Source: a virus. From it: a stretch of 46,473 nt of DNA. This document shows, in pieces, positions 3,448 to 31,431 of the stretch (position 1 is its first letter; every line of letters starts with the position of its first letter). The notes beneath the pieces are model-generated. The model worked only from the letters and a program-made list of their open reading frames with translations, was not told where the DNA came from and ran no database searches. The position numbers and the translations under genes are program-made. The stretch covers positions 1 to 46,473 of the IMG/VR virus record IMGVR_UViG_3300045988_102028; one strand, given 5' to 3'.

Positions 3448-3801
3448 TTATAATTTCGGTAGTGGTGGAACATCTGCGACGGGAGCGGCAGCGCCCACGG
3501 CGCTTATTGGCTCTCCGCCTTTCATCGCTCTGAAAAGGTTGTAAGCGCCGATCAACTTGTCTTGGTTCGTGTCTGCCCATCCGAATAACTCTCCGATGGT
3601 TGATTTGGCCTGCTGGAGCATCGATGGTGGTACTGGGTCGAAATCGGGGACCTTCTCCATGTCTTTCATGTAGAAATCATACATCCGTTCCATCGTAGCT
3701 ATGTCGCCCTGATACATTTGCATTAGGGATCGTTTCAGGGCATCTTTGGAGGACGTGCGGATCATGTCCATGTTGTGATATTCTTTTCTGTTGAATAACA
3801 T
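3448..3801 (-). CDS. Hypothetical protein (117 aa)
   Basis: ORF in operon. Confidence 0.55.
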   Translation of the reverse strand: MLFNRKEYHNMDMIRTSSKDALKRSLMQMYQGDIATMERMYDFYMKDMEKVPDFDPVPPSMLQQAKSTIGELFGWADTNQDKLIGAYNLFRAMKGGEPISAVGAAAPVADVPPLPKL

Positions 3802-21586: not shown

Positions 21587-22815
21587 TAGATCATGTATTT
21601 TTGAAGTTCATTTTGAGCATCCGGTAAAGACATTAATCCGGTCTGTACAGCTTGATTGAGAGCCGACACAAGAGAAACCATGCCTGCTGCCTGCTGTCGT
21701 TTGGCATCTTGGAATAACTCCAAGTGGTCGAAGAAAGGTTTGATGGCAAAACCTTCATTTCCGTATATACTGTTTAGTACGGACATAATATTTCGCGCGG
21801 AAGGAATAATGTCATTCGTATAAAATTCGAGTTTTGCCTCTCCAAAATTTGAATAAGTGCTACCTTCTACATCTAATAGGATGCTGGGTACTTGATAGGT
21901 ATAGGCAATATCCTTTTTGCAGTTGCGCTGGATGTCCGTTAATCCGAGGTCGGCGATAGTGGATGATATGGGAATATACGAGGCCTTGAAAGCTGTTATA
22001 GCATATTTTAGTCGTCCTTTGAGTACGCCGTATTTATTCAATCCTTCTTCAAGTTCTTGTTTATCCTTTTTTGTAAACGGCGAGGACAATGTAGTCGTTG
22101 GATCATCGGACATCAGCGAAATGATACCCAGCATTCCTCTGTTTACCAACAACTCATTTACGGCGTCGTATGAAGATATGAAGGTGTTAATAGGGTATTG
22201 AAGTGATTCCATACGGGATGTGGAGCCTCCCATATGATTGAGCGAATAGGTCACGTCGTTGACAGCAAACATGTTGTCTTTATCAATAGTGATCTGGTAA
22301 CCACTTCCGAGCGTTATGGTGTAGTCTTTGATGTCGGCATAAGGTGCGAATGTCGCCTCAATAATGGCTTGTTCGTTTTCTGTTACCATTAGATTGGGGA
22401 CGACGTATAACTCAAAATCGGACTCGAATCCTATAGGCGCTATCTTGACAATGTAGGCTTTGCCGAATATTTGCGAGAAGAATTCGATCATACAGACGAA
22501 TTCAGAAAGGGTTTGGTACTTGTTAGGCCTCTGCATCTTATTAAGCGCTTCGGGTCTTTGAATGTCATTCCCTTCATCGTCCTGTGCCCAATAGCGAGCG
22601 TCGGCAATTGCCGAAACCTTTTTAGTTATAATGGATGCAAGAATGGAACACGAGGCGAAAGCCGCCGCTTGTCCGTCAGGGGTCGAAGTATCAATGCCGC
22701 CGGAGCGAGTGCCGAACAATCTCAATACATCCCGGACATTAAGATTCAATGACTGGAACGAATTTTTATCGTTGCCACACTTGGCTATTCTCACGTTATA
22801 TCCAAAGAACTTCAT
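21586..22815 (-). CDS. Portal protein
   Basis: Start moved to MKFFGYNVRIAK (ATG 22815, ATGA overlap with the terL stop); 409 aa between terL and the protease. Confidence 0.65.
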   Translation of the reverse strand: MKFFGYNVRIAKCGNDKNSFQSLNLNVRDVLRLFGTRSGGIDTSTPDGQAAAFASCSILASIITKKVSAIADARYWAQDDEGNDIQRPEALNKMQRPNKYQTLSEFVCMIEFFSQIFGKAYIVKIAPIGFESDFELYVVPNLMVTENEQAIIEATFAPYADIKDYTITLGSGYQITIDKDNMFAVNDVTYSLNHMGGSTSRMESLQYPINTFISSYDAVNELLVNRGMLGIISLMSDDPTTTLSSPFTKKDKQELEEGLNKYGVLKGRLKYAITAFKASYIPISSTIADLGLTDIQRNCKKDIAYTYQVPSILLDVEGSTYSNFGEAKLEFYTNDIIPSARNIMSVLNSIYGNEGFAIKPFFDHLELFQDAKRQQAAGMVSLVSALNQAVQTGLMSLPDAQNELQKYMI

Positions 22816-24035
22816 GCTGCGATATAATTTCGGAACACTGTAGTTGTTACGTATCGTGCGGCGTCCCAAAGGTGATTATTCTTGTCTACGGGTTTATTGA
22901 TCGTAATGCCGTTTACTGCATCCCATACATAGGTATTGGCTTCATTACGCATATTTTTGGTTTTGACGCAATGGATGCGGAAATTCTTCATGTAGGAAAT
23001 ACCCGTAGTAATACTGTCTTGGAGTTTTTTGGCCTTGATGACATTAAGGCCTCGCATCTGGAGAGATCGAACCATGCCTTCGGGGTTTTTGGCATATTTG
23101 TCTGCGCTATCAGCAATAGCATATCCTTCAGAACCAAGAATTGGAGCTACTATTTGATAAAGCAAGTCAGGGTCGTCCACCGGAGAATAGAACAGCTCAT
23201 GCAGGAACAAGTCTCTGCCTCGAACTCCTACATGAATAATGGCCGTCGGATCATTCGTAAATCCAAAGTCAATACCGTAAGCGGTATATTCCAAATCGTC
23301 CGGGAACTCGTCTATCCAAGTTATATTGGGATAAACCAAGCCTTCTTGTGCCGCGCGTTCGCCAAGTCCGTAAACCTTCCATCGGAAGTCGTCTGCGGTT
23401 CCAGCTGCAATATTTTCGGGTGTCGGTTCATAGCTTTCAATAGTTTGCCTGACGCTGGGAGGACAGAAGGGGTTATCCTTGTAAGTGGTCTTGGTGAAGA
23501 TCGTGTCGGGCTGACCTTCCATCTCGAAAACCCAATGCTCCGTGTATTTGGGATTCCAGTCGCCGATGATCATTGTAGTGCAGCGCATCGTGATATTGTT
23601 GAACTGCGCTTTAGAAATGTCGTCCAGCATCTCGTTGAAGTAGATGATGTCGCAGTCGTGGCCCTCTTTCACGTCCATCTTGTCAAGGCCACGGAAACGA
23701 ATAATGCTGTCTCCGATATGATACTCGGGAAGTATCTTTTCGCTGTGCATACTGTCGGGGTCATAAATACCCCGTGCCATAAGCTTCTTTTTGAAATCGT
23801 CGAGGGCCTTCTCCTTGCAATCTTGCAACGTGGCGCGGTAAACATATATTTTATAGGCTCGGTCTCCGATAGCGCAAATGTCATAAAGGAAATCGAATGT
23901 ATCGAATGTCTTACCCGAACGAGAGCTGCCTTCGTTGAAAACACGCAGAACGACACCGGTGTTGCGGTACTTATGAAAGAAGTACCACATAATCTTATAC
24001 ACCTTGCCTCTATATGTCCGAGCATCAATTTCCAT
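22812..24035 (-). CDS. terL: Terminase large subunit
   Basis: Start moved to MEIDARTYRGKVYK (ATG 24035, overlaps the terS end); Walker-A-like NEGSSRSGKT; conserved position. Confidence 0.8.
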   Translation of the reverse strand: MEIDARTYRGKVYKIMWYFFHKYRNTGVVLRVFNEGSSRSGKTFDTFDFLYDICAIGDRAYKIYVYRATLQDCKEKALDDFKKKLMARGIYDPDSMHSEKILPEYHIGDSIIRFRGLDKMDVKEGHDCDIIYFNEMLDDISKAQFNNITMRCTTMIIGDWNPKYTEHWVFEMEGQPDTIFTKTTYKDNPFCPPSVRQTIESYEPTPENIAAGTADDFRWKVYGLGERAAQEGLVYPNITWIDEFPDDLEYTAYGIDFGFTNDPTAIIHVGVRGRDLFLHELFYSPVDDPDLLYQIVAPILGSEGYAIADSADKYAKNPEGMVRSLQMRGLNVIKAKKLQDSITTGISYMKNFRIHCVKTKNMRNEANTYVWDAVNGITINKPVDKNNHLWDAARYVTTTVFRNYIAA

Positions 24036-24546
24036 CCTTATTCGTTGAATTGATGGTTTGCTTACCGATAGACTGGATGATGGATGCCGCTGCCTCATCT
24101 ACCGTAAAGGTGACAGCAGGGACCTGTGCGATCTCCTTGCCGTTGGTGGTCACATCCTGACGGTCGGCAAGTCCTTGAAGGCGGGCAACTATATTCGGAT
24201 TATAGGCACCAATAAGAGCGCCTTCGATCTGGGAATTAGCGAAAGCTGTTCGCGCGCGCGTTGTGACGCTCAAAAACTCCTCTTGTCTCTCGTATTCTCG
24301 GAATGTATTTTCGACAATATCTGCAAATACACAGAAGCCAACCAGCGTAAGCGGCCTTTCGGTTGGAACGGGGATAATTTCCCCTGCCGACACTTTGTTA
24401 ATGGACAAAGGATGCTCCTTGGCCCATTCGACGTATTCCTCAAACTTGGCTTCAAGGGCTTCGGGGGTATATGCACGAGGGCGGCCCACTTTGCGGGTGG
24501 GCTTGCTGTCGGTTGTCGTCTTGGTTCCTTCCGTTCTCTTTGCCAT
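24025..24546 (-). CDS. terS: Terminase small subunit
   Basis: Start moved to MAKRTEGTK (ATG 24546). GRPRAYTPEALEAKFEEYVEW...PLTLVGFCVF matches the common TerS N-terminal pattern. Confidence 0.7.
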   Translation of the reverse strand: MAKRTEGTKTTTDSKPTRKVGRPRAYTPEALEAKFEEYVEWAKEHPLSINKVSAGEIIPVPTERPLTLVGFCVFADIVENTFREYERQEEFLSVTTRARTAFANSQIEGALIGAYNPNIVARLQGLADRQDVTTNGKEIAQVPAVTFTVDEAAASIIQSIGKQTINSTNKDGN

Positions 24547-27483: not shown

Positions 27484-27936
27484 TCACGGTTTATTCGTCA
27501 GTTCATCTTGCTTTTCTTTGACTGCACCCAACCGTCGAGAGAGGACTTCATCATCTCCCTGTTGAGTTAACTTCCGGATCAGGGCGTCTTTTTCTTTCAG
27601 TTGCTCCTTCATCGTGGCAAGCTGCTCTTTCAGGGTGTTGATGTAGTCCATTGTAAGTGGGTCCATCGTAGCCTGTGTGTTTGTTGGGTTAATAATAGTA
27701 TTATCTGTTTGGGTTGCCCCGGTATTATCTTTTAGCATGGACCCTTCGCCGGTCAGTAGCCACCCGATATTTAAATCGGGAAATGATTTTGCTATTTTAG
27801 ATTGGGCATCTATGCGTAGCGATTGGGTAGTGGGCTTAAATGTTGCATTCGGCAACCCTGATTCTCGCTCAATAGCTGCTTTGGTTGTTTTCTTGTGTTT
27901 TGCATAGATATTTATGCGCTCTACGATTGTACTCAT
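27484..27936 (-). CDS. CI-like repressor (HTH plus coiled coil)
   Basis: N-terminus IVERINIYAKHKKTTKAAIERESGLPNATF...NIGWLLTGEGSM (phage CI-type HTH hallmark WLLTGEG); divergent from the early operon. Confidence 0.75.
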   Translation of the reverse strand: MSTIVERINIYAKHKKTTKAAIERESGLPNATFKPTTQSLRIDAQSKIAKSFPDLNIGWLLTGEGSMLKDNTGATQTDNTIINPTNTQATMDPLTMDYINTLKEQLATMKEQLKEKDALIRKLTQQGDDEVLSRRLGAVKEKQDELTNKP

Positions 27937-28036
27937 AATATACTGAATGTTAAGTATTTTATAGTTTCTGCAAATTGCATAAATATTTATTATTATATTT
28001 TATGTCTATTTTACGCGGTATATTAGATTTTTAATC

Positions 28037-28044
28037 TATATTTG
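28037..28044 (+). promoter_or_regulatory. Early rightward promoter candidate (-7 box TATATTTG)
   Basis: Exact TAnnTTTG 43 nt upstream of ATG 28087 in the AT-rich divergent region; no clean -33 box. Confidence 0.45.
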
Positions 28045-28086
28045 CAATACCAAACAACGGGTAACGCACAAATATAGCAAAATAAA

Positions 28087-28326
28087 ATGAAAACCACCTA
28101 CAACCGCTCGAAAATCATGAAGAACGCATGGTATCTGAAAAAGGTGCAGCCGTCGATGACTTTCTCGGCCTGCCTCAAGAAAGCATGGCGCAACGAGAAA
28201 ATGCGCATGGTGAACTGCCTGATCGAGGGGCGCCCGATGGAGGAGCCGAAGGTTGCAGAGTGGCATCCGCTGGCAACTATCCCGGCTGACTACTACGGCA
28301 ACAGCAGAATGTACTACGGTGACTAA
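28087..28326 (+). CDS. Hypothetical early protein (79 aa)
   Basis: First ORF of the rightward operon. Confidence 0.55.
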   Translation: MKTTYNRSKIMKNAWYLKKVQPSMTFSACLKKAWRNEKMRMVNCLIEGRPMEEPKVAEWHPLATIPADYYGNSRMYYGD

Positions 28327-28343
28327 TCAAATACGATACGAAT

Positions 28344-28439
28344 ATGAACGAGATCACCCAATCGGCCGACCGCCTGACGGCCTTACTCGAAGAGCAGGCG
28401 GAATGTATCAAACGGATTCTTGAAATTTTAGACAAATAG
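28344..28439 (+). CDS. Possible small protein (31 aa)
   Basis: ATG 28344 to TAG 28437-28439 translates MNEITQSADRLTALLEEQAECIKRILEILDK; below the ORF-track cutoff. Confidence 0.3.
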   Translation: MNEITQSADRLTALLEEQAECIKRILEILDK

Positions 28440-28597
28440 CAGGATAAAAACGAAAAGGGGCCACATTCGGCCGATGAATACTGTTTCTATTCATGGCATA
28501 AAGGGTTAAAATGTTGGCGGCGCCAGTTTAACACCCCGGTCAGGGTGACCGCCAGCCCCGAGGGGCAAGATAAAAGTAGTTATTTATCCTGCTTTTT
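28439..28597 (+). ncRNA. Structured RNA element or compound terminator (five internal hairpins closed by a 10-bp stem plus U-run)
   Basis: GCAGGATAAA (28439-28448) pairs with TTTATCCTGC (28583-28592), then TTTTT. Internal helices: GGCC/GGCC, ATGAATA/TATTCAT, GGGTTAAA/TTTAAC(A)CC, GGTCA/TGACC, GCCC/GGGC. Confidence 0.45.
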
Positions 28598-28627
28598 AAA
28601 ATAAACACTTAACTAAATAGTCAAGCA

Positions 28628-28837
28628 ATGAAACTGAACAGGCCCATAAAGAAAATCGGATATGCGGATACGCTGCGTGCTATGCAAGTAGGCGATGAAC
28701 TTAAGGTAAAAATAAATGCACAAAATGCAACATCTTTTCGCCGGGCTCGGTTGTGGCTGAAGCGCAAAGGCGAGGGCGAATGGATGCAGGAAAGCAGTTC
28801 GAAGTTCGGATATGTAAAAATCGTACGGATCGCATAA
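28628..28837 (+). CDS. Hypothetical protein (69 aa)
   Basis: ORF with a plausible basic composition. Confidence 0.5.
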   Translation: MKLNRPIKKIGYADTLRAMQVGDELKVKINAQNATSFRRARLWLKRKGEGEWMQESSSKFGYVKIVRIA

Positions 28838-28898
28838 GCCGGGGCCGGGAGTTCCGGGTTGAAGAACTGATAGAGAATTAAACCAACAACACAACAAT

Positions 28899-29624
28899 AT
28901 GGAAACAAATTACAAAGAGGTAAAAGACAGCCTTCTGTCTTTCGGGAAAAGCCATTCGGCCTGCCAACATGAATACAAACGCCTTTATGCGGCGGAAAGC
29001 GTAGAGAGTGTTATGGAGGTTGTCAAAGACAATTTTTCTTGGTGCTGTCAGTATAAAGACTTTGCGGATGTTTTGATGGCGCATCGGGATCAGTTTGCCG
29101 AACACAAAATTTGGATCAATACCTCCGTAGAAATCAATGAAGGCATCGGATACCTGCTGACGACAGAGGGCGAATTTAACGCCACGAGCCTGGAAACCTC
29201 GACGATCAACGCCCGGAGCTGGGGAACCTCGACGATCAACGCCCGGAGCTGGGGAACCTCGACGATCAACGCCGAGAGCAGGGAAACCTCGACGATCAAC
29301 GCCGAGAGCTGGGGAACCTCGACGATCAACGCCACGAGCCGGGGACCCTCGACGATCAACGCCCGGAGCCGGGAAACCTCGACGATCAACGCCCGGAGCC
29401 GGGAAACCTCGACGATCAACGCCGAGAGCTGGGAAACCTCGACGATCAACGCCCGGAGCTGGGAAACCTCGACGATCAACGCCGAGAGCTGGGGAACCTC
29501 GACGATGATTCTACTCACATCCACTATTGAGTGCCAAGTAAATAATAGCAGTATTGCTCGATACATCGCCGAAAATAGGGTTGTATTCGCAGACGGTTCA
29601 ATGAAGTTTGAGAGGCGAAAGTGA
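28899..29624 (+). CDS. Tandem-decapeptide repeat protein (TSTINA-x-S-x-x, about 11 copies)
   Basis: 241-aa ORF with a unique N-terminal domain followed by ARSWGTSTIN-type repeats. Confidence 0.7.
   Translation: METNYKEVKDSLLSFGKSHSACQHEYKRLYAAESVESVMEVVKDNFSWCCQYKDFADVLMAHRDQFAEHKIWINTSVEINEGIGYLLTTEGEFNATSLETSTINARSWGTSTINARSWGTSTINAESRETSTINAESWGTSTINATSRGPSTINARSRETSTINARSRETSTINAESWETSTINARSWETSTINAESWGTSTMILLTSTIECQVNNSSIARYIAENRVVFADGSMKFERRK
29179..29506 (+). repeat. About 11 head-to-tail copies of a 30-bp unit (g[ga]aacctcgacgatcaacgccNNgagcNgg)
   Basis: Read directly; the differences fall at the same three codon positions in each unit. Confidence 0.9.
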
Positions 29625-29632
29625 TAAAATAG

Positions 29633-29829
29633 GAGTGTGTGGCGGAATGGTAGACGCTATTAAGCAGTAGCCCTCTGCTCTTACCTCAGACCCGTAGGAA
29701 ATGACGGGTGTCGGCTCAGGCGAATCAGAGCAAACAAACGCATAACAGGAGGTACTGGTGCAATTCCAGTGTTAAAAGGAGCGAATGAGCAGCACAATGG
29801 GTATGCAGGTTCGAATCCTGCCACACTCC
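29633..29829 (+). ncRNA. tRNA-Leu-like gene with a branched insert of about 110 nt in place of the anticodon arm
   Basis: 5' GAGTGTG-TG-GCGGAATGGTAGACGC; 3' GCAGG-TTCGAAT-CCTGC-CACACTC-C; 147 nt in between. Confidence 0.6.
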
Positions 29830-30140
29830 CAAAATAGCAGCCCGCAAGGGTTAGGGGTTTGATCGCTGGCAATAACCCCAACCGCAAGGCAGAAAGCGAT
29901 CCGGCAGTCGGAGCCACACCATTCCGACCGACGCTTGCAACGTAATTGCACTATGTGCCGCCATTGAGAAGATGCGGCCGCGAGTAAGCAAATAGCCGAA
30001 AAGCGCGAAAGACTGGCATAGGCTCCGAAGCTGCGATGACATGAGCGGCGAGGACCACCGGGATAAATAACGCATTATTATGCCCGGTGTGGTTTGAATG
30101 CACCTATCCGGGCTCCAATGCGGGCCGAGTGCACACGTTC
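29830..30140 (+). ncRNA. ORF-free, GNRA-rich, pseudoknotted structured RNA candidate
   Basis: GCAA, GAAA and GAAG loops on GC stems. GGGGTT/AACCCC hairpin whose loop GATCGCT pairs with AGCGATC 28 nt downstream. 7-bp CACCGGG/CCCGGTG helix. Confidence 0.4.
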
Positions 30141-30323
30141 TTTCAATCTATTGCATCTCTGTAATTTAAGTTTAGTGGTTATCACATTCCGCGCAAAGCC
30201 CGCTTTTATGCCCTGATGGCGTCCGTATGGATAACCAGTATCATCTGGCGTATACCACTATTCATTCGGTGAGCCTTGCCTTCGATGGCGTCAGGGCACA
30301 AAGAACCTTAAAATATCAAGACT

Positions 30324-30572
30324 ATGGAGAAAGATTTGAGAAAGCCACAGGCCTGCATCCTGGCCTACTTCATCAGAGGCGGTACGCTTACAGTCCAGAA
30401 AACGTTTCGGATGTTTCGCACAACAGAGCTGCGGAAGATCGTCACACGCCTCCGGCGCAAAGGCTATATCATCGTCGGCGACTGGTGTTACAGCCACGAC
30501 GCCGACAGAGGGCGGGTTGTCCGCTACAAAGAGTATCGTATGATTGTTCACCCTGAAATTGCACAAGTATGA
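30324..30572 (+). CDS. Small winged-helix-type DNA-binding protein (82 aa)
   Basis: CILAYFIRGGTLTVQKTFRMFRTTELRKIVTRLRRKGYII fits the small wHTH pattern (IL..L..G.LT...A...F....L..RI..LR..GY.I). Confidence 0.55.
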   Translation: MEKDLRKPQACILAYFIRGGTLTVQKTFRMFRTTELRKIVTRLRRKGYIIVGDWCYSHDADRGRVVRYKEYRMIVHPEIAQV

Positions 30573-30826
30573 AAAACAAGACATTCAGACCCCGGAAATT
30601 TCTGGGCATCGACTTCACGTCGAGGAAACGGTATCGCGCCGAGATCACGAGGCTGGAGCGTATGAATGCTGACCTTCAGCGAAGCTTCGCCGCGGGAGAA
30701 AAGGACCGATGTGACCTTCTGAAGAAGTGCGCAGCGGAACGCAACCTGCGTCTGGCCGCCGAGAACGAGCTGGCGAAATTCCGACGTAAGAGAGGTGCAA
30801 AGGGCCGGTTCGTCAAAATTGGATAG
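30569..30826 (+). CDS. Coiled-coil basic protein (85 aa)
   Basis: ATGA overlap with the upstream gene. Confidence 0.5.
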   Translation: MKNKTFRPRKFLGIDFTSRKRYRAEITRLERMNADLQRSFAAGEKDRCDLLKKCAAERNLRLAAENELAKFRRKRGAKGRFVKIG

Positions 30827-30886
30827 AAAACAGGTCGCGGACGCCTCAAAGTTCGCACGTTTGCATTTGGAGATAGTAGTTTGCGT

Positions 30887-30920
30887 CGCCCGTCATCCGT
30901 GAGGCCCGCGGGCGATATTT
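30887..30920 (+). terminator. Hairpin plus T-run after 30569..30826
   Basis: TCGCCCG-(14 nt)-CGGGCGA followed by TATTTT. Confidence 0.5.
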
Positions 30921-30921
30921 T

Positions 30922-31035
30922 GGAGGGTTAGCCCAGCGGATAGAGCGGTGCAGGAATGCGAAACAGAAACAATCGGGGGTTGCGAGACCCCGCATTTCCG
31001 GGCGCAGGACGGGAGTTCGAATCTCTCACCCTCCG
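30922..31035 (+). ncRNA. tRNA-shaped gene with the anticodon arm extended into a rod, an A-rich internal loop and an apical hairpin
   Basis: GGAGGGT-TA-GCCC-AGCGGATA-GAGC ... GGGAG-TTCGAAT-CTCTC-ACCCTCC-G, with 64 nt between the D and T arms. Confidence 0.6.
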
Positions 31036-31181
31036 CAACCCCTTTGTTGATGATGCAAGTAGAGCGACGATAGCGCAAGGGATTATTGCCGATTGCGCGG
31101 CAATGGCAAAGCGGAACAGACGCTTGACTCTATCGGACAGATTATACGAAAGCATCTGACGGCCGGGAAAGACCGGCACTT

Positions 31182-31252
31182 TGAGCTATAGTGTAACGGC
31201 AACACACCGCCCTTTGGAGGCGGTACTCCCGGTTCGAATCCGGGTGGCTCAA
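31182..31252 (+). tRNA. tRNA-Gln (anticodon UUG)
   Basis: TGAGCTA-TA-GTGT-AACGGCA-ACAC-A-CCGCC-CTTTGGA-GGCGG-TACT-CCCGG-TTCGAAT-CCGGG-TGGCTCA-A. Canonical 71-nt cloverleaf with the U1:A72 pair typical of bacterial tRNA-Gln. Confidence 0.85.
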
Positions 31253-31431
31253 CAGGGTACAATCCCTACGTTGTTAGTTTGATCGAGAGACCATCCAATC
31301 AACGGAAGCGAAAGAGAAGGTGTGACCTTCGAATATCCGACGCCGCGTGAAGCATAGTAGCAAGGCCGAGGCGGACGCCCACGAAACGGGCAAAGAACGC
31401 AAACCGGCGGTGCGGAATCCGTGTCGCCACC

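Follow-up and report, generated by a model that had tools for sequence, protein, structure and literature searches.

A conserved, modular folded RNA downstream of a tRNA-like element in temperate gut phages

Introduction

What occupies the intergenic interval between a tRNA-like element and a winged-helix protein gene in the virus record IMGVR_UViG_3300045988_102028 (IMG/VR)? A first-pass annotation of the window, the whole stretch of 46,473 nucleotides (nt) analysed here, had flagged positions 29830-30140 as a structured noncoding RNA candidate beside the tRNA-like gene, which it could not assign to a known family. The core of that proposal stood: homologs exist, their helices show compensatory changes, a conserved open reading frame (ORF) was not found and the Rfam search was negative; several structural details had to be corrected. 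The interval after the tRNA-like element is a conserved, modular and folded plus-strand RNA of ~490 nt, which fits no described family. Judging from its sequence and surroundings, this RNA probably serves to control or punctuate early transcription in a gut Alistipes phage. Control by RNA has been mapped only sparsely in Bacteroidota and the phages that infect them; these bacteria lack Hfq and ProQ, and initiate translation mostly without Shine-Dalgarno sequences. In the following, the conservation of the element, its noncoding status, its covarying helices, its strand and its genomic context are demonstrated before its possible function is considered.

Results

Conservation and modular layout

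Relatives were gathered by protein-anchored and pattern-anchored scans, which yielded ~170 loci (cited by L numbers) with ~60 distinct haplotypes of the intergenic region. The sources were human-gut viromes and metagenomes and a single metagenome-assembled genome (MAG) of Alistipes sp.; a blastn search against the cultured phages of INPHARED gave no match. Within the genome collection, the 3′ half of the tRNA-like element matched a single entry, an Alistipes sp. MAG that carries a related element. The element is confined to one phage lineage, and phage-borne structured RNAs are as such a kind of molecule already known.

The homology of the relatives to the window begins at 29802, within the T arm of the tRNA-like element. 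Identity to the window was 93-96% in all relatives over 29802-29900 and 75-88% over 30079-30330; the middle block, 29900-30078, was present in some relatives only. The element is a mosaic of two alternative 5′ modules (A1 and A2), three middles (B1, B2 and B3) and a 3′ part common to all. Module A1 is the type of the window, A2 occurs in L031, L056, L063, L105, L131 and L153, and L163 is a full-length, more diverged relative. Altogether, the conserved noncoding element extends from ~29833 to ~30323, up to the start of the winged-helix gene, so that the ~310 nt originally flagged were too short a span.

The absence of a credible ORF, noted initially for the flagged span, was borne out by the relatives. 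Among nine representative haplotypes, ORFs of at least 30 amino acids (aa) varied in frame, extent and start on either strand. Codon-position tests were without power, as the coding sequence of the winged-helix protein, included as positive control, was itself not significant.

Compensatory changes and strand

At least six helices of the element keep their pairing by compensatory changes, and double-sided exchanges were found in several helices including H1, H5, H8, H9 and H10 (Table 1). For H7 to H9, 30 pairs were evaluated in a MAFFT alignment of 15 sequences. The partners were paired in 96.4% of the cases, versus 35-46% when they were slid against each other, and six pairs showed double-sided change, a number reached in one of 500 shuffles. 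Length changes of the helices were restricted to loops.

The helices of the 3′ half contained 94 G.U cells versus 7 A.C cells. This asymmetry indicates that the folded molecule is plus-strand RNA, and neither DNA nor the minus strand. Consensus energies from RNAalifold slightly favoured the plus strand as well. The minimum free energy of the single sequence was no better than that of shuffles on the plus strand (z = -0.59), and the minus strand reached z = -2.25; single-sequence folding was set aside in favour of the G.U and A.C counts because it was misleading about the strand.

Table 1 Positions of the tRNA-like element, the RNA helices and the following gene in the window
Feature	Position	Strand	Details
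tRNA-like element	29632-29830	+	acceptor stem 29632-38 with 29823-29; D arm 29641-57; T arm 29806-22
H1	29839-29852	+	5-bp hairpin AGCCC-GCAA-GGGUU; covariation
H-type pseudoknot candidate	29854-29901	+	S1 29854-59/29874-79; S2 29861-67/29895-29901
H3	29907-29928	+	hairpin GUCGG/CCGAC; invariant in window type
H4	29936-29950	+	short hairpin UGCA/UGCA; weakly supported
H5	29950-29985	+	hairpin GCCGC/GCGGC, 29957-61/29974-78; loop CAUUGAGAAGAU; closing ACU/AGU 29950-52/29983-85
H7	30013-30061	+	composite hairpin; CUGG/CCGG 30013-16/30058-61; CC/GG 30025-26/30052-53; GCUGC/GCGGC 30030-34/30045-49
H8	30082-30113	+	hairpin GCCCGG/CCGGGC, inner GGU/ACC; apical loop UUGAAUG; three outer pairs change on both sides
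H9	30120-30203	+	long-range helix GCGGGC..GUGC/GCGC..GCCCGC; 30120-32 with 30191-30203
H10	30210-30297	+	terminal long helix GCCCUGAUG/CGUCAGGGC; 30210-18 with 30289-97; ~27 nt before next start codon
Winged-helix protein gene	30324-30572	+	82 aa; weak match to Pfam HTH_39 (E=0.0037, under curated cut-off); phrog_4973

Helices of the element

The motifs from which the first-pass annotation had started are located exactly where it placed them: GCCC-GCAA-GGGT at 29840-29851, CC-GCAA-GG at 29882-29889, GGGGTT at 29854-59 with AACCCC at 29874-79, GATCGCT at 29861-67 with AGCGATC at 29895-29901, GTCGG/CCGAC at 29907-11 and 29924-28, and CACCGGG/CCCGGTG at 30056-62 and 30083-89. Its description of the region as rich in GNRA loops was not confirmed. 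The 17 GNRA tetramers compare with 14.3 +/- 2.9 in dinucleotide shuffles, and 217 of 1000 shuffles reached 17. Just one GNRA loop (29844) caps a stem of at least 3 base pairs (bp), the strands of the proposed stems GCC-GAAAA-GC, GCGC-GAAA-GAC and CTCC-GAAG-CTG are not complementary and form no stems, and the GNRA loops are not conserved among relatives.

At the 5′ end, H1 varied in the L104, L110, L127 and L163 types, where its A-U pair was replaced by C-G and its G.U pair by A-U; the loop was AAU, GAAU or CGACGA instead of GNRA. The L031, L056 and L063 types carry another hairpin, GCCGCC-AUUU-AGGCGG, at this position.

The complementarity on which an H-type pseudoknot had been proposed is real and conserved. 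Its stems S1 and S2 were paired in 97-99% of the cases; 11 of the 13 pairs never varied in A1-type relatives, and one terminal pair was seen as G-C, G.U and A-U and also mismatched. Due to this invariance, covariation can neither support nor refute the two stems. Among 1000 dinucleotide shuffles, 22 contained a 6-bp Watson-Crick stem with a loop that pairs over 7 nt (Watson-Crick) with a downstream sequence, which makes the arrangement moderately unusual. The pseudoknot candidate, which includes a 2-bp GCAA mini-hairpin (29882-89), is situated in the best-conserved block, 29802-29900, and is absent or replaced in the six A2-type relatives L031, L056, L063, L105, L131 and L153. Their module GCCUGA/UCAGGC might be taken for a second pseudoknot that covaries independently, but it is not counted as support, as it aligns equally well with hairpin H3. 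At the position of H3, ahead of CGACGC, the A2 types have GCCUGA/UCAGGC and the L022 and L104 types GCCGAU/AUCGGC.

In the middle part, four pairs of H4 were invariant and a fifth was mostly unpaired; an inner A-U pair is G-C in L163. The GCCGC/GCGGC helix of the first-pass annotation, H5, turned out to be the best-supported helix of all, with 100% pairing and changes on both sides in three of five pairs. Its stem is replaced by GAGCC/GGCUC in L031, L056 and L105, by GAGAC/GUCUC in L131 and by GCGGA/UCCGC in L163, and the loop motif GAGAAGA is kept under the four different stems (as UGAAGA in L163). H7 was paired in 98.7-100% of the cases, with the one-sided changes U.G to C-G and U.G to U-A; a 9-nt insertion in L056 and L153 affects only its apical loop. 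The 7-bp helix CACCGGG/CCCGGTG suggested earlier is probably wrong: it was paired in 84.6% of the cells, showed no compensatory change and conflicts with the better-supported H7 and H8.

Within the 3′ part, the stem of H8 reads GCCCGUG/CACGGGC in L002, GCCUGUG/CACAGGC in L104 and CAUGGCGGGG/CCCCGUCAUG in L163, where a wholly different 10-bp stem carries the same UUGAAUG loop. H9 encloses an A/U-rich variable stretch that opens with the conserved ACACGUUCUUUC; its outer part was 94% paired, and the pair 30122/30201 changed from G-C to A-U in 10 of 31 haplotypes. H10 consists of nine stacked pairs, three of which showed double-sided change (UGA/UCA in the window, GUG/CAC in L163, GCG/CGC in L104 and L159). 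An alignment of the terminal helix of L163 with H9 was set aside, H10 being the better match. In the L104 and L159 types and in L163, H10 is directly followed by U8, about 25-30 nt before the ATG, too short a distance for a promoter to fit in between. The loop region enclosed by H10, 40-70 nt, is unusually large for an intrinsic terminator.

Four GC-rich segments of the 3′ part (30082-86, 30109-13, 30120-25 and 30198-203) vary in concert, C/G/G/C being replaced by U/A/A/U in the L104 group. Since H8 and H9 undergo the same C/U and G/A change, the alternative pairings 30082-86/30121-25 and 30109-12/30199-202 are kept, too. The concerted segments thus preserve two mutually exclusive pairing schemes, which could be the result of a conformational switch or of gene conversion between the repeats. 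The repeated GC motifs also made an exhaustive helix scan noisy.

Known RNA families

The first-pass annotation had not assigned the sequence to a known RNA family, in agreement with a cmscan search against Rfam 15, whose models include ROOL, GOLLD, hepatitis delta virus (HDV)-type, twister, pistol, hatchet and hammerhead ribozymes, transfer-messenger RNA (tmRNA), YrlA, C4 and riboswitches. At gathering level, only two tRNAs (31182 and 32536) were detected in the window; at E<=10, the region 29300-30500 had one chance match, on the minus strand of the T arm. Sixteen related loci contained tRNAs only. The suggested links to ROOL, GOLLD and HDV-like (theta) ribozymes found no support.

The tRNA-like element

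The element upstream of the RNA is not a canonical tRNA by the measures of a cloverleaf, a 7-nt anticodon loop and recognition by tRNA finders. In the window, it was called neither by ARAGORN with default settings nor by Rfam. The intron mode of ARAGORN gave inconsistent isotypes (Leu, Gly, Phe, Pyl, Ser and Ala) for elements with one shared acceptor stem. Its D arm is presumably of tRNA-Leu type, by comparison with the E. coli tRNA-Leu sequence; the Leu call of the intron mode is unreliable. Between D arm and T arm, the window has a non-conserved insert of ~130 nt. Most relatives preserve only the acceptor stem and the T arm, and the middle is hypervariable, ranging from 0 to ~130 nt with differing inserts of ~60, 75 or 130 nt in other phages. 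L163 has another acceptor stem (GGGTGAT/ATCACCC) and another T stem (CCGGG/CCCGG), both complementary through compensatory changes. In L005, a different tRNA 5′ half is fused to the same 3′ half, and this element alone scores as a tRNA (42 bits, 111 nt). The element looks like a tRNA scaffold open to any cargo, or like a tRNA-Leu gene in decay. An acceptor/T-arm minihelix is the minimal substrate for RNase P, RNase Z and the CCA-adding enzyme.

In L007, L008, L012 and L017, the element is reduced to a 35-nt minihelix by a deletion between two GCAGGTT repeats. In these loci and in L014, such direct-repeat deletions removed part or all of the 5′ half; either the element is dispensable or the deletions are artefacts of assembly or recombination.

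Two other identities of the element were rejected. A one- or two-piece tmRNA is contradicted by negative ARAGORN and Rfam searches, the lack of CCA and the lack of a second acceptor strand downstream. An attP core at a tRNA 3′ half does not agree with an integrase located 28 kb away, with the presence of the 5′ acceptor strand, or with the 25-nt T-arm/acceptor pattern, which occurred in one of 185,579 species genomes, that copy being a relative of this phage.

Genomic context

The window represents a temperate tailed phage or prophage with a tyrosine integrase of Bacteroidota type (228-1505). Structural and packaging genes, with the large terminase at 22812-24098, are encoded on the minus strand up to ~27.9 kb. 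From 28087 onward every gene is on the plus strand, including those for RecT, a YqaJ exonuclease, a replisome organiser and an antirepressor. The neighbours of the flagged region are a 241-aa repeat protein upstream (28899-29624) and the 82-aa winged-helix protein downstream. A perfect Bacteroidota -7 box (TAnnTTTG) occurs on the plus strand of 27900-31300 in a single copy, at 28037, and the upstream stop codon is 8 nt away from the start of the tRNA-like element. This sole box, the short gap and the uniform orientation of the genes argue for co-transcription; most simply, the structured region is part of an early polycistronic transcript.

In most relatives, the winged-helix gene directly follows the RNA. 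An additional ORF for a 98-aa coiled-coil protein precedes it in L056, L104, L131, L159 and L161, and an unrelated 160-aa ORF takes its place in L110. In front of these differing genes, the A/U-rich stretch CCUUAAAA is retained upstream of the ATG.

Further observations were made in the surrounding region. The 241-aa protein contains tandem 30-nt (10-aa) repeats GGGAAACCTCGACGATCAACGCCGAGAGCT at 29178-29510, whose copy number differs among relatives, with matched gene lengths of ~400 to ~1030 nt. The first ORF of the early operon (28087-28326, 79 aa) has a weak NCBIfam match to the anti-CRISPR protein AcrIIA3 (E=4e-5), which at 23.6 bits lies well under the cut-off of 70. A second unusual tRNA is present at 32536-32632 (Rfam, 50 bits over 97 nt). 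It was missed by default ARAGORN, which in intron mode read it as tRNA-Ser(GGA) with a 23-nt insert at position 38, and it is kept in the relatives L022 and L031. Most relatives (loci L001-L038, ~3569-3654) have a tRNA-Ser(ACU) ~230 nt upstream of a tRNA-Gln(UUG); in the window, the tRNA-Gln (31182-31253) stands alone and an 85-aa ORF (30569-30826) occupies the interval (30569-31180).

Type II CRISPR arrays against this phage are present in hosts. Locus L133 (OIEG01001471.1, 2763-5293) is a host array with ~39 repeats of 36 nt (GTTGTATCTTATCGAAATTCTACATCAAACCACAAC), adjoining Cas1 and a Cas9 RuvC-III fragment. One of its spacers matches the conserved block CAATGCGGGTTTTGTGCACACGTTCTTTC (window 30117-30146), which shows natural type II targeting of these phages. 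This spacer was considered as a strand indicator, on the assumption of an RNA-targeting Cas13b array, and rejected: the Cas9 fragment and Cas1 beside the array identify it as type II and therefore uninformative on transcription.

Discussion

The function of the element has to be deduced from its structure and its place in the genome. We tentatively favour, as somewhat less than an even chance, a structured RNA of the early operon that acts in cis as a leader or intercistronic element, of attenuator or antitermination type in some relatives and combined with a tRNA-type processing signal. This reading is based on the position of the element, the terminator-like end in some relatives and the concerted GC segments; transcription, processing and the regulatory mechanism are inferred. 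The whole interval from ~29833 to ~30323 would be transcribed as plus strand within the early rightward operon, and the transcript of ~490 nt would form nine or more helices in a modular fold: a near-invariant 5′ hairpin with the pseudoknot candidate, a replaceable middle, and a conserved 3′ part ending in the long helix H10. Acting in cis, it may determine how much transcription or translation reaches the winged-helix gene and, beyond it, the genes for tRNAs, recombination and replication. Where the last helix carries a U8 tail, it would resemble an intrinsic terminator and could form part of an attenuator or of an antitermination-type switch. The acceptor/T-arm minihelix of the tRNA-like element probably serves as a cleavage signal of the RNase P/RNase Z type, which would split the RNA from the upstream message.

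Several observations weigh against this interpretation. The haplotypes are closely related and mosaic, and the covariation counts are therefore not counts of independent events. In the commonest haplotypes (B2 type), the middle 170 nt are exchanged for unrelated sequence, which implies that the element can do without a large part of the flagged span. In five haplotypes, a plain GC hairpin stands in place of the tRNA-like element; hence, tRNA-type processing cannot be obligatory. In the window, position 30297 is followed by ACAAAGAACC and by no U tract, so that a terminator function is not universal, and a terminator scan of the plus strand from 29830 to 30323 had no hit. Based on its sequence, the T8G run of the L104 type could be a Bacteroidota -7 promoter element, with TTTG 20 nt upstream. 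The concerted change of the GC segments could stem from gene conversion and not from a functional switch. An antiterminator-like protein was not recognised among the ORFs of the window in Pfam, PHROGs and NCBIfam scans.

Nearly as plausible as a cis-acting leader, although doubtful in its own right, is a stand-alone, stable and trans-acting noncoding RNA of ~450-500 nt, excised from the early transcript by cleavage at the tRNA-like element and reaching as far as the terminal helix. It would be a Bacteroidota-phage counterpart of ROOL and GOLLD or of the TMERs of murine gammaherpesvirus 68 (MHV68). The module indeed remains constant while its neighbours vary (several upstream genes, three kinds of downstream gene), it is bounded by the tRNA-like minihelix on the 5′ side and by a hairpin with U8 on the 3′ side in the L104 and L163 types, and the near-invariance of its 5′ block is what a binding surface or a seed would lead one to expect. 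However, the window type possesses neither a terminator tail nor a promoter before the next gene, so that transcription of the downstream gene has to pass through this RNA. The freely swapped middle third, the lack of an Rfam family match and the lack of a known target or partner also speak against an independent molecule.

An improbable explanation is a control region acting at the DNA level, with operators, a promoter or a recombination linker, in which the repeats TTATGCCC, GCGGGC/GCCCGC and TGTGCACA bind proteins such as the winged-helix protein, or in which conserved junction sequences promote the exchange of modules between phages. The mosaic breakpoints lie at the edges of conserved blocks, as at 29802 in the T arm; TTATGCCC is directly repeated at 30078 and 30205, an 8-nt palindrome, TGTGCACA, is found at 30129, and the gene immediately downstream is of a DNA-binding type. 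Nevertheless, the excess of G.U over A.C cells is sensible only for a plus-strand RNA, length changes are confined to loops, and the stems of H5 and H8 change fully under constant loops, which is the reverse of what protein-binding repeats would show.

Very unlikely is an HDV-like (theta) self-cleaving ribozyme whose cleavage would remove the 3′ trailer from the tRNA-like gene. The sequence can be mapped onto such a fold with GGGGUU/AACCCC as P1, GAUCGCU/AGCGAUC as P2, CCGCAAGG as P4 and CAGAA as J4/2, and the order of its strands (S1-5′, S2-5′, S1-3′, mini-hairpin, C-purine linker, S2-3′) is that of the HDV-like nested topology. The D arm, if of the tRNA-Leu type assumed above, would suit the known surroundings of theta ribozymes, which adjoin phage tRNAs, often tRNA-Leu, and are found to ~90% in phages of Bacteroidota (PMC10879173). 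The mapping was rejected as three defining features fail. Only GGCAAU (6 nt, 29868-73) lies between S2-5′ and S1-3′, where a 3-bp P3 and L3 must fit. The first base of J4/2, the catalytic C, is U in the L104, L110, L127 and L161 group (UAUAA versus CAGAA in the window), and a C-to-U exchange at this position inactivates the theta ribozyme (PMC10879173). The putative cleavage site at the start of P1 (29854) is located 24 nt after the end of the tRNA-like element (~29830), beyond the range of +/-5 nt, and H1 intervenes. In addition, the Rfam models for HDV-type, pistol, twister, hatchet and hammerhead ribozymes remained empty at E<=10, and the module is missing from A2-type relatives.

Least credible of all are small protein-coding genes: minus-strand ORFs of 74 to 119 aa do occur in the window (29851-30075, 74 aa) and, as the longest ORFs of relatives (97-119 aa), in L007, L017 and L063, but their frames, starts and lengths do not agree, a frameshift affects the 97-aa ORF in the window, L002, L031 and L056 have it in broken form, the predicted amino-acid sequence is lost wherever the DNA diverges, and the surrounding genes and base skews all point to the plus strand.

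With considerable reserve, the element might be regarded as the representative of an undescribed class of large (~450-500 nt), modular, tRNA-linked RNAs in temperate Alistipes phages, working either on the early operon, as an RNA-only device for processive antitermination or for attenuation, or in trans, as a stable RNA that tRNA-processing enzymes set free, with a tRNA-like scaffold carrying a hypervariable insert in the same system. A covariation-supported early-operon RNA of ~490 nt in common gut Alistipes prophages would offer a testable handle on the timing of early expression; it also adds a family that current Rfam models miss. The tRNA-like minihelix, indifferent to the insert it carries, may be an example from nature of phage transcripts punctuated with the help of tRNA-processing enzymes. 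In large-scale surveys, structured RNAs without a name have been predicted by the thousands for gut phages. One of them, the 76-nt candidate DNAVirus_6565 from Alistipes Caudovirales, is reported to be highly expressed in small-RNA sequencing of stool (PMC10690425); it may overlap the present locus and would then be a tentative lead towards a stand-alone RNA.

Among characterized systems, the put RNA of phage HK022, the EAR element of Bacillus and lambda nut-tR1 resemble the element in several respects. Like them, the element is situated within a long early operon or at its beginning, is a conserved RNA of many helices with a possible pseudoknot, lies upstream of a hairpin with a U tract in some relatives, and holds its place regardless of the gene that follows. 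It differs from them by the lack of an Rfam match at E<=10 over 29300-30500 and by the terminal helix of the window, which has no U tract; furthermore, it comprises ~490 nt, in contrast to ~70 nt for put and ~120 nt for EAR, and has a Bacteroidota host. RNAs of the put and EAR type need no dedicated protein partner. To our knowledge, no put-, nut- or EAR-like element has been described for Bacteroidota.

ROOL (RF03087) and GOLLD (RF01998) are likewise phage-borne, several hundred nt long, rich in helices and situated beside tRNA or tRNA-like genes. The cmscan search for them was negative, and unlike their one large conserved architecture, the element is modular with a swappable middle third, is limited to a single Alistipes phage lineage and abuts the start codon of the next gene. 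With theta ribozymes (PMC10879173), it shares the location 3′ of a tRNA-like gene, the Bacteroidota gut phage and the strand order of an HDV-like pseudoknot, but it lacks room for P3 and L3 and a conserved catalytic C, and lies 24 nt from the tRNA-like end. The arrangement of a tRNA-like minihelix directly 5′ of a structured RNA recalls the TMERs of MHV68, mascRNA/MALAT1 and mitochondrial tRNA punctuation; here, the virus is bacterial, the processing is deduced from the arrangement, and five haplotypes have a plain hairpin instead. None of these systems shares sequence or architecture with the element, and put, EAR, ROOL, GOLLD and the TMERs may be considered its nearest counterparts by analogy.

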